Positions 14,322 to 20,217 of a stretch of DNA of 64,000 nt are shown piece by piece. The notes under the pieces were generated by a model, which saw only the letters and a program-made list of their open reading frames with translations, was not told the DNA's origin and did no database searches. Numbering within the stretch: position 1 is the stretch's first letter; each line of letters begins with the position of its first letter. The position numbers were made by a program, and so were the translations under genes. The stretch comes from Escherichia coli (lineage in GTDB: Bacteria > Pseudomonadota > Gammaproteobacteria > Enterobacterales > Enterobacteriaceae), in assembly GCF_024700885.2 (NCBI RefSeq), contig NZ_CP117016.1; one strand, written 5' to 3'.

Positions 14322-16235
14322 ATGTCATCCGATATTAAGATCAAAGTGCAAAGCTTTGGTCGTTTCCTCAGCAACATGGTGATGCCAAATATCGGCGCGT
14401 TTATCGCGTGGGGTATCATCACCGCGTTATTTATTCCAACAGGGTGGTTACCGAACGAAACGCTGGCGAAGCTGGTCGGGCCAATGATCACTTATCTCCT
14501 GCCGCTGCTGATCGGTTATACCGGTGGTAAGCTGGTAGGCGGCGAACGTGGCGGTGTAGTCGGTGCCATCACCACCATGGGCGTTATCGTCGGCGCAGAT
14601 ATGCCAATGTTCCTTGGTTCTATGATTGCAGGTCCGCTGGGCGGCTGGTGCATTAAGCACTTCGACCGCTGGGTAGACGGTAAGATCAAATCCGGTTTTG
14701 AGATGCTGGTGAATAACTTCTCCGCAGGCATCATCGGGATGATCCTCGCTATTCTGGCATTCCTCGGCATTGGCCCGATTGTTGAAGCCCTGTCCAAAAT
14801 GCTGGCTGCGGGCGTTAACTTCATGGTTGTCCATGACATGCTGCCGCTGGCGTCTATCTTTGTTGAACCGGCGAAAATCCTGTTCCTCAACAACGCCATT
14901 AACCACGGTATCTTCTCGCCGCTGGGTATTCAGCAGTCCCATGAACTGGGTAAATCCATCTTCTTCCTGATTGAAGCTAACCCAGGTCCGGGTATGGGCG
15001 TGCTGCTGGCGTACATGTTCTTTGGTCGTGGTAGCGCTAAACAGTCTGCGGGCGGTGCGGCAATCATCCACTTCCTGGGCGGTATCCACGAAATCTACTT
15101 CCCGTATGTGCTGATGAATCCGCGTCTGATTCTGGCCGTTATCCTCGGTGGTATGACTGGCGTGTTCACGCTGACTATCCTGGGCGGTGGTCTGGTTTCT
15201 CCGGCATCTCCGGGTTCTATCCTTGCTGTACTGGCGATGACACCAAAAGGTGCTTATTTCGCTAACATCGCGGGTGTGTGTGCGGCGATGGCTGTCTCCT
15301 TCGTTGTCTCTGCTATTTTGCTGAAAACCAGCAAAGTGAAAGAAGAAGATGATATTGAAGCAGCAACTCGTCGTATGCAGGACATGAAAGCTGAGTCTAA
15401 AGGTGCGTCTCCGCTGTCTGCGGGCGATGTGACTAACGACCTGAGCCACGTACGTAAAATCATCGTTGCCTGTGATGCCGGTATGGGTTCCAGTGCAATG
15501 GGCGCAGGCGTGCTGCGTAAGAAAATTCAGGATGCAGGTCTGTCGCAGATTTCTGTTACTAACAGCGCGATCAACAACCTGCCGCCAGATGTGGACCTGG
15601 TCATCACTCACCGTGACCTGACCGAACGCGCTATGCGCCAGGTTCCGCAGGCACAGCATATTTCGCTGACCAACTTCCTCGACAGCGGCTTGTACACCAG
15701 CCTGACCGAACGTCTGGTTGCTGCCCAGCGCCATACTGAAAACGAAGTGAAAGTGAAAGACAGTCTGAAAGACAGCTTTGACGATTCCAATGCTAACCTG
15801 TTCAAGCTAGGCGCGGAGAACATCTTCCTCGGTCGCAAAGCGGCCACCAAAGAAGAAGCGATTCGTTTTGCTGGCGAGCAACTGGTGAAAGGCGGTTACG
15901 TTGAGCCGGAATACGTTCAGGCGATGCTGGATCGTGAAAAACTGACCCCGACTTATCTGGGTGAGTCTATCGCGGTGCCACACGGTACGGTTGAAGCGAA
16001 AGATCGCGTACTGAAAACGGGCGTGGTGTTCTGCCAGTACCCGGAAGGCGTGCGCTTCGGTGAAGAAGAAGATGACATTGCCCGTCTGGTGATTGGTATT
16101 GCTGCCCGTAACAACGAGCACATTCAGGTTATCACCAGCCTGACCAATGCACTGGATGATGAATCCGTCATCGAGCGTCTGGCACACACCACCAGCGTGG
16201 ATGAAGTGCTGGAACTGCTGGCAGGTCGTAAGTAA
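14322..16235 (+). CDS. mtlA: PTS mannitol-specific EIICBA component
   Basis: 637-aa ORF, N-terminus [31 protein letters not shown] matches recalled MtlA; full length. Confidence 0.97.
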
Positions 16236-16245
16236 TCCAATCCTA

Positions 16246-16301
16246 CCCTCTCCTCACGGAGAGGGTTTGGGTGAGGGAAAAGCCTCACCCCAGCCCTCTC
16301 G
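16246..16301. repeat. GC-rich nested palindromic element in the mtlA-mtlD intergenic region
   Basis: ccctctcc(16246-16253)-tcac-ggagaggg(16258-16265); gggtgagg(16269-16276)-gaaaag-cctcaccc(16283-16290); a third ccctctcg copy at 16294-16301 could pair alternatively with ggagaggg. Confidence 0.6.
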
Positions 16302-16329
16302 GGTAAAAACATTGATGAAGGTTAATACT

Positions 16330-17478
16330 ATGAAAGCATTACATTTTGGCGCAGGTAATATCGGTCGTGGCTTTATCGGTAAACTGCTGGCAGACGCGGG
16401 TATCCAACTGACGTTTGCCGATGTCAATCAGGTGGTACTTGATGCCCTGAATGCCCGTCATAGCTATCAGGTTCATGTGGTCGGTGAAACCGAGCAGGTA
16501 GATACCGTTTCCGGCGTCAATGCCGTCAGCAGCATTGGTGATGATGTCGTTGATCTGATTGCTCAGGTTGATTTAGTCACTACCGCCGTTGGTCCGGTTG
16601 TGCTGGAACGTATTGCTCCGGCAATCGCCAAAGGGCTGGTGAAACGTAAAGAACAAGGTAATGAATCCCCGCTGAACATTATCGCCTGTGAAAACATGGT
16701 ACGCGGCACCACGCAGCTGAAAGGCCATGTGATGAACGCCCTGCCGGAAGATGCCAAAGCGTGGGTAGAAGAACACGTTGGCTTTGTCGATTCCGCCGTT
16801 GACCGCATCGTGCCGCCTTCGGCTTCTGCAACCAACGATCCGCTGGAAGTGACGGTAGAAACATTCAGCGAATGGATTGTTGATAAAACCCAGTTCAAAG
16901 GCGCGCTGCCGAACATCCCAGGAATGGAGTTAACCGACAACCTGATGGCATTTGTCGAACGTAAACTCTTCACCCTGAATACAGGTCATGCTATAACCGC
17001 GTACCTCGGAAAACTGGCCGGTCATCAGACCATTCGTGACGCTATTCTCGACGAGAAAATCCGCGCGGTGGTAAAAGGTGCGATGGAAGAAAGTGGTGCA
17101 GTATTGATCAAGCGCTACGGCTTTGACGCAGACAAACATGCGGCGTACATCCGGAAAATCCTCGGTCGTTTCGAGAACCCGTATCTGAAAGATGATGTAG
17201 AGCGCGTAGGCCGTCAGCCGCTGCGTAAACTGAGTGCTGGCGACCGTCTGATCAAGCCACTGCTCGGAACGCTGGAATATGGTCTGCCACATAAAAACCT
17301 GATTGAAGGTATTGCCGCTGCAATGCACTTCCGCAGTGAAGATGATCCGCAGGCTCAGGAACTGGCAGCACTGATCGCTGACAAAGGTCCGCAGGCGGCG
17401 CTGGCACAGATTTCCGGTCTTGATGCCAACAGCGAGGTTGTATCCGAGGCGGTAACCGCTTATAAAGCAATGCAATAA
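16330..17478 (+). CDS. mtlD: mannitol-1-phosphate 5-dehydrogenase
   Basis: start at internal ATG 16330 ([20 protein letters not shown], Rossmann motif) gives 382 aa; the longer track ORF from 16147 runs through the intergenic palindromes. Confidence 0.96.
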
Positions 17479-18065
17479 TGGTGGACCAGGCGCAGGATAC
17501 CCTGCGCCCGAATAACAGATTGTCAGATATGCAGGCAACAATGGAACAAACCCAGGCCTTTGAAAACCGTGTGCTTGAGCGTCTGAATGCTGGCAAAACC
17601 GTGCGAAGCTTTCTGATCACCGCCGTCGAGCTTTTGACCGAGGCGGTAAATCTTCTGGTGCTTCAGGTATTCCGCAAAGACGATTACGCGGTGAAGTATG
17701 CTGTAGAACCGTTACTCGACGGCGACGGTCCGCTGGGCGATCTTTCTGTGCGTTTAAAACTCATTTACGGGTTGGGCGTCATTAACCGCCAGGAATACGA
17801 AGATGCGGAACTGCTGATGGCATTGCGTGAAGAGCTAAATCACGACGGCAACGAGTACGCGTTTACCGACGACGAAATCCTTGGACCCTTTGGTGAACTG
17901 CATTGCGTGGCGGCGTTACCACCGCCGCCACAGTTTGAACCTGCAGACTCCAGTTTGTATGCAATGCAAATTCAGCGTTACCAACAGGCTGTGCGATCAA
18001 CAATGGTCCTTTCACTGACAGAGCTGATTTCCAAAATCAGCTTAAAAAAAGCCTTCCAAAAGTAA
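17478..18065 (+). CDS. mtlR: mannitol operon repressor
   Basis: 195-aa ORF; ATG overlaps the mtlD stop (TAATG); operon position. Confidence 0.93.
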   Translation: MVDQAQDTLRPNNRLSDMQATMEQTQAFENRVLERLNAGKTVRSFLITAVELLTEAVNLLVLQVFRKDDYAVKYAVEPLLDGDGPLGDLSVRLKLIYGLGVINRQEYEDAELLMALREELNHDGNEYAFTDDEILGPFGELHCVAALPPPPQFEPADSSLYAMQIQRYQQAVRSTMVLSLTELISKISLKKAFQK

Positions 18066-18080
18066 GCAACGTCTGCTTAC
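18062..18080. terminator. perfect 7-bp inverted repeat spanning the convergent mtlR and yibT stop codons
   Basis: gtaagca-acgtc-tgcttac; on the minus strand the hairpin is followed by UUUUGG, so it likely terminates yibT; no U-run on the plus side. Confidence 0.5.
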
Positions 18081-18286
18081 TGCCCCTCTACCTGCTTCGG
18101 CCGATAAAGCCGACGATAATACTCCAGACGTTGTAGATATAACGGCACGCTTTCATCAGGTATTCCGGACGGAATCGCGTTACGGGGAGGTAGTTTTTTC
18201 AGATACTCCCGGAACGCCTGGCTCGATGCCATGAAATCTACGGCTTTATCGATAAGAAGCGGAACGTTTTCACCTAATTTGCCCAT
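18077..18286 (-). CDS. yibT: small protein YibT
   Basis: 69-aa [32 protein letters not shown]; position after mtlR. Confidence 0.75.
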
Positions 18287-18569
18287 GATGATATCTCCGT
18301 ATTACCCCGCGCCGGGAATGCGCGGCCGCCAATTTTAGTTTAGATCCCGGTATAAATGACATTAAGGAAAACGTGCTCAATCCTCAATAATCATCCGTTT
18401 CTATTAACTATCTTTTTTCTTTAAATTTCTTAATTAATCAATAAATTGCGTAGTTTTTAAGCATGTTAATGTTTACGTTATAGAACTATTGCAATGTCAT
18501 CAGTTGTGAACAAAGCACCTGGTCGCGCATACTAGGGGCTATAAATTTATCTTTATCAGAAGCCATCAC

Positions 18570-18932
18570 ATGAAAGAAGTCGAAAAAAACGAAATCAAAC
18601 GTCTCAGCGATCGTCTGGACGCCATCCGCCACCAGCAGGCCGATCTGTCGCTGGTTGAAGCCGCAGACAAATATGCTGAACTGGAAAAAGAGAAAGCCAC
18701 TCTGGAAGCAGAAATTGCTCGCCTGCGCGAAGTTCACAGCCAGAAACTCAGTAAGGAAGCACAGAAGCTGATGAAGATGCCGTTCCAGCGCGCGATTACT
18801 AAAAAAGAGCAAGCTGATATGGGCAAACTGAAGAAGAGCGTTCGCGGACTGGTCGTTGTGCACCCAATGACCGCGCTGGGCCGCGAAATGGGCCTACAAG
18901 AGATGACAGGGTTCTCTAAGACTGCGTTTTAA
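18570..18932 (+). CDS. yibL: ribosome-associated protein YibL
   Basis: 120-aa [29 protein letters not shown]; position. Confidence 0.8.
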
Positions 18933-19490
18933 GTTCCTTTCTCGTCGCTGTAATTACAGCCACTCACGATTTACTCGCTCCTGCTGGCACATGCAGGGGC
19001 CTGTTTTAGCGATCGAATATTTATAACGTTCTTAACATTATATATTCAACTCCACCTACACTTCTGAGCGCTCGGAGCAGGCTAAATTCTGAAAATCCGG
19101 TACAAATTAAAGAATGATGTATCAATATTAACAATGAATTGCCGCATATCAATGCTTGAAACATAATTAATTATTTAAATTTTTCTATCAGCATCGCAAA
19201 CTTCGCAATAAAACATCACTCAACTGAATATTTACCTTTCCCTGCCCTGGGCCTTTATCCGGTGAAACATTTGACATTGATTGACACCGATCATTAAAAT
19301 CCGCGCGATTAATATTATTGGCTACAAACCGAAATTGTTTGACACTTAATAACATATTCGCACAACCAATTAATACAAAAATTCTCTAACAAATTTATTT
19401 GTCGGATATGCTCCACTCTAATCATTCATAAAAAAAATGATTGTGCCGTAATTATCAACTGTATCGGGATTATGAAAAGGAATTCATCCT

Positions 19491-20174
19491 ATGAACCTAA
19501 AGAAAACACTGTTAAGCGTGTTAATAATAGTGCCTCTCTGCTTATTGGCAGGGTGTGACTATATTGAAAAAGCGAGTAAGGTCGACGACCTCGTTACACA
19601 GCAAGAGTTGCAAAAAAGCAAAATTGAGGCGCTTGAGAAACAACAGGAACTCGATAAGCGAAAGATAGAACATTTTGAAAAACAACAAACTACTATCATA
19701 AATAGTACCAAGACGCTCGCTGGCGTGGTGAAAGCGGTTAAAGACAAACAGGACGAATTTGTCTTTACAGAATTTAACCCGGCACAAACACAATACTTCA
19801 TTCTAAATAACGGTTCTGTCGGTTTGGCAGGTCGGGTGCTGGCTATTGATGCGGTTGAAAACGGCAGCGTTATTCGTATTTCACTAGTCAATCTATTAAG
19901 CGTTCCCGTATCAAATATTGGCTTTCATGCGACATGGGGCAATGAAAGACCCACCGATGCCAAAGCTCTGGCGAAGTGGCAACAATTACTTTTCAACACC
20001 ACCATGAATTCCACTCTGCAATTAATGCCTGGTCAATGGCAAGACATTAATCTGACATTAAAAGGCGTTTCGCCTAATAACCTGAAGTATCTGAAGTTGT
20101 CCATCAATATGGCAAATCTCCAGTTCGACACTGTTCAATCTGCTGAAACTCGGCAGCGAAAAAACAAAAAATAA
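19491..20174 (+). CDS. coiled-coil lipoprotein, SadB-like candidate autotransporter-adhesin helper
   Basis: 227-aa ORF; signal peptide with lipobox LLAGC; heptad-rich segment (QQELQKSKIEALEKQQELDKRKIEHFEKQQ); immediately upstream of the adhesin gene and co-oriented. Confidence 0.55.
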   Translation: MNLKKTLLSVLIIVPLCLLAGCDYIEKASKVDDLVTQQELQKSKIEALEKQQELDKRKIEHFEKQQTTIINSTKTLAGVVKAVKDKQDEFVFTEFNPAQTQYFILNNGSVGLAGRVLAIDAVENGSVIRISLVNLLSVPVSNIGFHATWGNERPTDAKALAKWQQLLFNTTMNSTLQLMPGQWQDINLTLKGVSPNNLKYLKLSINMANLQFDTVQSAETRQRKNKK

Positions 20175-20217
20175 ATGCAGCTTCTGCGCTTATATCAAGG
20201 AATAGAGAGCATCAATA

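Follow-up and report, generated by a model that had tools for sequence, protein, structure and literature searches.

A weak stem-loop common to the 3' ends of the convergent genes mtlR and yibT in Escherichia coli

Does a palindrome that takes in the stop codons of two convergent genes shape the ends of both transcripts, and does it tie the evolution of the two proteins together? The question is raised by the junction of mtlR and yibT in Escherichia coli, situated in the stretch of 64,000 nucleotides analysed here (in the following, the window). A preliminary description of this DNA had proposed that the two genes share a 3' end structure at the nucleotide level, which would constrain both C-termini.

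The inverted repeat first described (GTAAGCA/TGCTTAC, 18062-18068 and 18074-18080, 7 bp) is exact and is extended by one more A-T pair to 8 bp (Table 1); positions 18060-18082 of the window read AAGTAAGCAACGTCTGCTTACTG. The ORF coordinates bear out that the stop codons of both genes are situated within the palindrome, the spacing from stop to stop being 11 bases, and the RefSeq annotation of matching E. coli genomes places mtlD, mtlR, yibT and yibL at the locus. The hairpin folds with -9.5 kcal/mol on the + strand (z = -4.5 against shuffles) and with -9.0 kcal/mol on the - strand (z = -0.9), the modest value of the latter z-score being due to a flank that folds readily anyway. With only three G-C pairs the 8-bp stem is weak, yet it passed the stem criterion of the terminator scan described below. 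The palindrome is a weak, AU-rich stem-loop common to the 3' ends of two tail-to-tail genes.

Table 1. Features at and near the mtlR-yibT junction (positions in the window)
Feature	Position	Strand	Basis and remarks
Perfect inverted repeat of 8 bp, AGTAAGCA (18061-18068) / TGCTTACT (18074-18081), loop ACGTC of 5 nt	18061..18081	either	sequence, folding
mtlR CDS, 195 aa	17478..18065	+	TAA at 18063-18065 in the 5' arm; ORF list and RefSeq annotation of matching E. coli genomes
yibT CDS, 69 aa	18077..18286	-	stop at 18077-18079 (TTA on +) in the 3' arm; ORF list and RefSeq annotation of matching genomes
U-rich tail UUUGGAAGGCUUUUUUUAAG, 50% U, antisense to the mtlR codons ...KKAFQK	18041..18060	-	fails the U-tract criterion of the scan
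C-rich, G-poor stretch GCCCCTCTACCTGCTTCGGC, 50% C, rut-like, without U-run	18082..18101	+	base composition
Equivalent of the K-12 yibT 3' end 3776158; RNA ends ...AAGCAGACGUUGCUU	18064..18064	-	Term-seq, Adams et al. 2021
GC-rich 9-bp inverted repeat GTGGCGGCG / CGCCGCCAC in mtlR	17907..17931	-	inverted-repeat search; -19 kcal/mol on the - strand

Two further features of the window may be recorded here. Another perfect inverted repeat, of 9 bp with a 3-nt loop (AGCTGATTT/AAATCAGCT), is found within mtlR at 18022-18042, where it codes for ELISKIS, and is followed by A7 at 18044-18050; almost all of the 80 species sampled share it at the nucleotide level. The combination of this repeat with the A7/U7 run (18022-18050) was rejected as a terminator, because the run is misplaced relative to the hairpin on either strand and because no mapped 3' end coincides with it. 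Downstream of yibL, positions 19491-25947 contain an ORF of 227 aa with a lipoprotein-like N-terminus and then a highly repetitive, adhesin-like ORF of 1909 aa; in K-12, lldP follows directly after yibL, so that this segment constitutes strain-variable content.

Concerning the origin of the palindrome, a large part of it comes with the arrangement of the genes. TAA facing TAA is self-complementary, and the overlap with both stop codons is therefore a by-product of compact convergent packing. Five of the eight pairs are forced in this manner: the facing stop codons account for three of them, and the other two arise because both final sense codons, AAG (Lys) in MtlR and CAG (Gln) in YibT, end in AG. 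The remaining three pairs are free and belong to the spacer; if the coding flanks are held constant, their probability is 0.0156 (about 1/64), and comparison with shuffled spacers places the real one in the top 1-5% (p = 0.012 for the + strand, 0.048 for the - strand), an excess that for this junction is suggestive and not compelling. The palindrome might thus be a functionless by-product, with five pairs obtained for free, three spacer pairs arisen by chance or drift, and the RNA 3' end at K-12 position 3776158 (see below) made in some other way. We consider this rather unlikely. In a genome with hundreds of convergent gene pairs, a coincidence of about 1/64 is nothing remarkable; however, the 64-kb window contains 33 perfect inverted repeats with arms of 8 bp or more and a loop of 3-8 nt (around 24 distinct sites), against 7.6 +/- 2.9 expected from Markov simulations, such that repeats of this size are enriched about 3-4 times over chance.

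The proposed constraint on both C-termini fails. In the cross-genus sample, comprising 80 species of Enterobacteriaceae with MtlR, this protein ends in ...SLKKAFQK in nearly all species, including around 43 without an adjacent yibT as well as species without the palindrome; the exceptions are ...KKAFHK at three Kosakonia-type loci and three residues added after SLKKAFQK at three Klebsiella/Raoultella loci. According to a 2026 study (PMC13421365), the C-terminal helices of MtlR constitute its CRP-binding interface, which provides an explanation of this conservation at the protein level. The C-terminus of YibT is its most variable region (VEGQ, VEKQ, VEEQ, VEEK, EEERG, QQEEK, and others). Since the end of MtlR is near-invariant regardless of yibT and palindrome, and the end of YibT varies freely, no measurable constraint is exerted by the palindrome on either protein. 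The dependence, if there is any, is reversed: the conserved MtlR codons for KKAFQK, read as their reverse complement, make up the U-rich tail of the yibT transcript. Palindromes spanning the stop codons of convergent genes, largely free where TAA faces TAA, are therefore not evidence of coupled protein evolution, and the present case is a useful caution for scans made from sequence alone.

Within E. coli, the hairpin is found almost throughout. In K-12 MG1655 the palindrome is identical (3776155-3776175, with mtlR at 3775572-3776159 and yibT at 3776171-3776380; window positions correspond to K-12 positions minus 3,758,094). Among 5426 complete E. coli genomes, around 99% keep the hairpin in two sequence versions, namely a type with a spacer of 11 nt (4000 genomes) and a type with a spacer of 10 nt (1351 genomes), the latter found for example in UPEC 536 as AAGTAAGT-ACTTTC-GCTTACTT and still pairing over 7 bp plus a U-G wobble on the + strand. 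In E. albertii, GCG...CGC replaces GCA...TGC, a double change from A-T to G-C by which the inner pair is kept. Retention in two versions that both pair, as well as this double change, argue against a functionless by-product. On the other side, the covariation in the Escherichia alignment is not significant (one compensatory pair in one lineage, equalled by 138 of 500 shuffles), and in three Escherichia lineages (L001, L003, L006) a deletion of 7 nt between TTAC direct repeats has removed the 3' arm and left around -3 kcal/mol, a deletion type that is represented by a single one (CUPF09, NZ_CP182142) of the 5426 E. coli genomes. The deletion junctions themselves (L001:2085-2100 and its counterparts in L003 and L006) possess 4 nt between the stop codons, with loops GTAA or GCGA.

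Across the 80 species, yibT is convergent with mtlR in around 37, with stop-to-stop distances ranging from -12 to +28 nt. The Salmonella junction possesses no hairpin, several Citrobacter exhibit unrelated hairpins that span the stop codons, and in Klebsiella/Raoultella mtlR and yibT overlap by 12 nt, for which reason the palindrome is impossible in Klebsiella. At 34 distinct junctions, the test for spacer structure gave median shuffle p values of 0.26 (+) and 0.39 (-) and thus no general signal. With this null result and the Salmonella junction lacking the hairpin, conservation of the palindrome across enterobacteria, which had been suggested as a check, is to be rejected: the hairpin is lineage-specific. 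Its restriction to Escherichia and some Citrobacter, with the losses mentioned above, is what a by-product would lead one to expect.

Some variants of gene order were encountered in the same sample. In Klebsiella indica (L068), K. oxytoca (L070), and Raoultella terrigena (L080), the yibT stop codon is situated inside the mtlR CDS (around 2079-2090). The gene yibT is missing from Enterobacter, Kosakonia, and relatives, where yibL is the next gene on the same strand, around 50-60 nt after mtlR (e.g., L019:2088-2509 and L066:2061-2476); in many genera, the mtlR-yibL spacer contains a short conserved motif (...TGTATCCTT...).

An intrinsic terminator consists of a G+C-rich stem-loop of around 5-14 bp, with the RNA 3' end situated in a U-tract around 7-9 nt past the stem. 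The earlier statement that a U-run is present on the yibT side only is correct but generous, as the tail on the - strand, UUUGGAAGGCUUUUUUU, is interrupted; the tail on the + strand reads GCCCCUCUACC. The scan demanded at least 5 U in the 8 nt immediately 3' of the stem, which neither tail provides (UUUGGAAG with 3 U in 8 on the - strand; GCCCCUCU on the + strand). Over positions 17300-18700 and on both strands, the scan for consensus terminators and promoters found nothing (0 terminators), and an Rfam scan of 16100-19500 returned no relevant family, the only match being a spurious, sub-threshold one to U4 elsewhere. The palindrome is not a textbook terminator, and for the mtlR transcript, owing to the lack of a U-tract, the hairpin cannot be an intrinsic terminator at all.

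A transcript 3' end maps to the hairpin, and indeed inside it; the finding that the preliminary description had named as a refutation, 3' ends that do not map near the hairpin, is therefore not what the data show. In Supplementary file 1 of Adams et al. 2021 (PMC7815308), K-12 Term-seq gives for yibT a "primary" 3' end at 3776158(-), antisense to mtlR, found only at LB OD 2.0 and with 40,273 average reads; "primary" is a label that there requires no more than a gene situated less than 50 bp upstream. The register was checked, the mapped nucleotide being character 51 of the listed 61-nt string, as shown by the SgrS entry, in which this character is the final U of the U8 run. The end falls inside the 3' arm, 3 nt before the 8-bp stem reaches its base, and not at the place expected for intrinsic termination. 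Its counterpart on the other strand is the second base of the mtlR TAA, and counted from the first base of the yibT UAA it is situated 15 nt downstream.

The strongest end on the - strand is another one, 3775997/8 (window 17903/4), with 31,772 (LB 0.4), 107,627 (LB 2.0), and 25,150 (M63) reads (PMC7815308). It is present in all three conditions, is 2.7-fold stronger than the end at the palindrome, lies 160 nt beyond that end, and is situated 3 nt past the GC-rich hairpin of Table 1, which reads GUGGCGGCG-GUGGUAA-CGCCGCCAC as RNA and whose repeat codes for AALPPPP in MtlR. Transcripts from the yibT side that end at 3775998 carry a tail of around 175 nt antisense to mtlR. Two 3' ends are thus documented for the yibT mRNA, of which the one at the weak shared hairpin is minor and the other, 160 nt further on and antisense to mtlR, is major; this result is mainly of value for annotation. 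Supplementary file 2 of the same study (PMC7815308) gives Rho regions at 3775490(-) with a score of 6.0 and at 3775884(+) with a score of 4.2; they derive from 800-nt windows, and the span of the latter includes the junction and is too coarse to be assigned to the palindrome.

On the + strand, no 3' end from mtlR to yibL is listed in the three Term-seq conditions, none of which induces the mtl operon; the absence is attributable to this lack of induction. The TERMITe supplements contain no entry for the site, and a literature search yielded no terminator described for E. coli mtlADR.

Two observations on neighbouring inverted repeats are added here. The repeat at 17907-17931 retains 5.6 Watson-Crick pairs where yibT is adjacent and 2.3 where it is not, a split that follows the phylogeny. 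The mtlA-mtlD spacer (16245-16290) contains two adjacent, G+C-rich inverted repeats of 8-9 bp (ACCCTCTCC...GGAGAGGGT and GGGTGAGGG...CCTCACCC) and, in K-12 Term-seq at LB OD 2.0, an orphan 3' end at 3774365(+), an indication of partial termination or of processing in this spacer.

The explanation that we favour, with modest confidence, is a leaky stem-loop shared by the two 3' ends, in which read-through RNA stopped by Rho is trimmed back to the GC-rich hairpin. On the yibT transcript, the palindrome would act as a leaky, proximal determinant of the 3' end at which a minority of the RNA ends, and from the position of that end and the adjoining tail we infer either inefficient termination against the interrupted U-rich tail combined with trimming, or exonuclease arrest. 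The majority of polymerases would continue for around 160 nt antisense into mtlR and be stopped by Rho further downstream, and their RNA would then be trimmed to the stronger, GC-rich hairpin. Rho-terminated RNAs are described by Dar & Sorek 2018 (PMC6061677) as ending just past stable stem-loops without U-tracts, and the text of Adams et al. (PMC7815308) agrees; the distal end, 3 nt after a strong hairpin and with a Rho region beyond, fits this pattern.

For the mtlR transcript, all steps of which we infer from the composition of the strand and the Rho data, the hairpin would be at most a barrier to exonucleases. After release of the ribosome at the TAA, the C-rich stretch downstream would offer a plausible entry site for Rho, the C/G ratio on the + strand being around 2 in 78-nt windows starting at 18010-18050. 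Given the absence of a U-tract, the C-rich and G-poor stretch, and the Rho region nearby, Rho-dependent termination is the most likely route on this strand.

The favoured explanation is consistent with a hairpin that is moderately stable on both strands, identical in K-12, and kept in nearly all E. coli. Counting against it are the null result of the scan, the three G-C pairs, the non-significant covariation, the loss of an arm in three lineages, and the lack of a hairpin in Salmonella, as well as the position of the yibT end: neither intrinsic termination nor exonuclease arrest typically leaves an end inside the descending arm, where it is found here instead of 7-9 nt past the stem. This position fits no simple model; it may be due to trimming into an AU-rich lower stem that frays easily, to a ribosome boundary at the yibT stop codon, or to processing. 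For the by-product alternative, the same position is an argument in its favour, an end defined by structure being unexpected within a stem. The end could then stem from endonucleolytic processing, or a ribosome positioned at the yibT stop codon could halt 3'-to-5' trimming, a candidate suggested by the distance of 15 nt from the first base of the UAA. Processing is also what Adams et al. (PMC7815308) hold responsible for most of the 3' ends that they scored, which were situated in 5' UTRs and ORFs. Against this stands the coincidence of the end with the hairpin to within 3 nt.

A further alternative is a collision-type, overlapping bidirectional terminator, in which the hairpin would pause both polymerases, and head-on as well as trailing collisions would release the transcripts, resulting in short overlapping 3' ends without U-tract or Rho. 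A hairpin between convergent genes that is part of both transcripts and unlike an intrinsic terminator matches the description of this class (10.1101/2022.10.23.513370), and the yibT end falls within the hairpin. Most of the - strand RNA, however, reads through to 3775998, such that termination at the hairpin is inefficient, and no opposing mtlR 3' end is reported. Furthermore, the yibT end is seen at LB OD 2.0, where the mtl operon should be poorly transcribed and collisions should be rare, whereas the model predicts a higher efficiency for highly expressed pairs (10.1101/2022.10.23.513370). We therefore judge this mechanism improbable here.

The palindrome as the binding site of a dimeric DNA-binding protein is the least likely of the alternatives and hardly credible. 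The symmetry, with arms of 8 bp and a spacer of 5 bp, is the only feature in favour of such a site; it would be situated at the 3' ends of both genes and far from either promoter, and the genera do not share its sequence. Nearby, a ChIP-seq site of PhoB (K-12 3776578) in the divergent promoter region of yibT and yibL (window 18287-18569; PMC10294691) is the only binding reported, and a protein-binding palindrome was accordingly rejected.

The PhoB site bears on a regulatory reading of the locus, as yibT is a PhoB-activated member of the pho regulon according to RNA-seq (PMC10294691). The antisense overlap with the gene of the mannitol repressor could be of regulatory interest, and mtlR-yibT might then form a regulatory excludon in which polymerases pause or collide at the hairpin, a possibility that we regard as very doubtful. 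If it were true, induction of yibT, in stationary phase or by PhoB under phosphate limitation, would send polymerases and the antisense tail of around 175 nt into the 3' end of mtlR, the mannitol repressor would be lowered, and stress signals would become coupled to the use of mannitol; the yibT end opposite the mtlR stop codon would in this case reflect an interplay of sense and antisense transcription and not simple termination.

Compared with canonical Rho-independent terminators, the palindrome is similar in that on the yibT strand a stem-loop is followed by a U-rich stretch, with a 3' end at the element. It differs by its three G-C pairs, by the interrupted U-tract (UUUGGAAGG; UUUGAAAGG in K-12), by an end that lies within the stem and not in the U-tract, and by the lack of a U-tract on the mtlR strand.

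The excludon comparison rests on transcription across the junction. Convergent excludons, said to have been described by Sesto et al. in 2013, reportedly consist of overlapping 3' UTRs of neighbouring genes. In MG1655, mtlR-yibT is listed among the convergent pairs with overlapping transcription in Table 1 of ExcludonFinder (PMC12288877; RNA-seq, criterion of 50% coverage), and the distal Term-seq end is likewise antisense to mtlR, in line with this class. The class is further characterized by reciprocal expression or by dsRNA processing through RNase III; in the latter respect, the supplements of the p19 dsRNA capture contain no entry for mtlR or yibT and hence no dsRNA from them.

The overlapping bidirectional terminators (the class of Ju et al. 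2019, from SEnd-seq; preprint of Wang et al. 2022, 10.1101/2022.10.23.513370) resemble the locus in possessing one hairpin between tail-to-tail genes that is part of both transcripts, and a palindrome without the appearance of a canonical intrinsic terminator. Of the paired ends that characterize the class, the yibT-strand end alone is seen here, as a minority species and at LB OD 2.0 only, mtl being uninduced in all three conditions, and most of the RNA runs on for 160 nt.

The protective stem-loops of Rho-terminated RNAs described by Dar & Sorek 2018 (PMC6061677) are matched on the mtlR strand by a hairpin without U-tract that is followed by a C-rich stretch, and on the other strand the strong distal hairpin, with the end at 3775998 just past it and the Rho region downstream, fits well. 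The palindrome itself differs from those stem-loops in being much weaker than the distal hairpin (-9 vs -19 kcal/mol) and in having no mapped end on the mtlR strand. Shared hairpins of convergent genes, hairpins that protect Rho-terminated RNAs, and convergent excludons were all known before, and both the yibT end and the transcriptional overlap stand in published tables; new are the link between the yibT end and the palindrome, the distribution of the latter in the population and the phylogeny, and the refutation of the idea of constraint. Among these systems, the palindrome is an ordinary, leaky, shared 3' stem-loop of a kind common between tail-to-tail genes.
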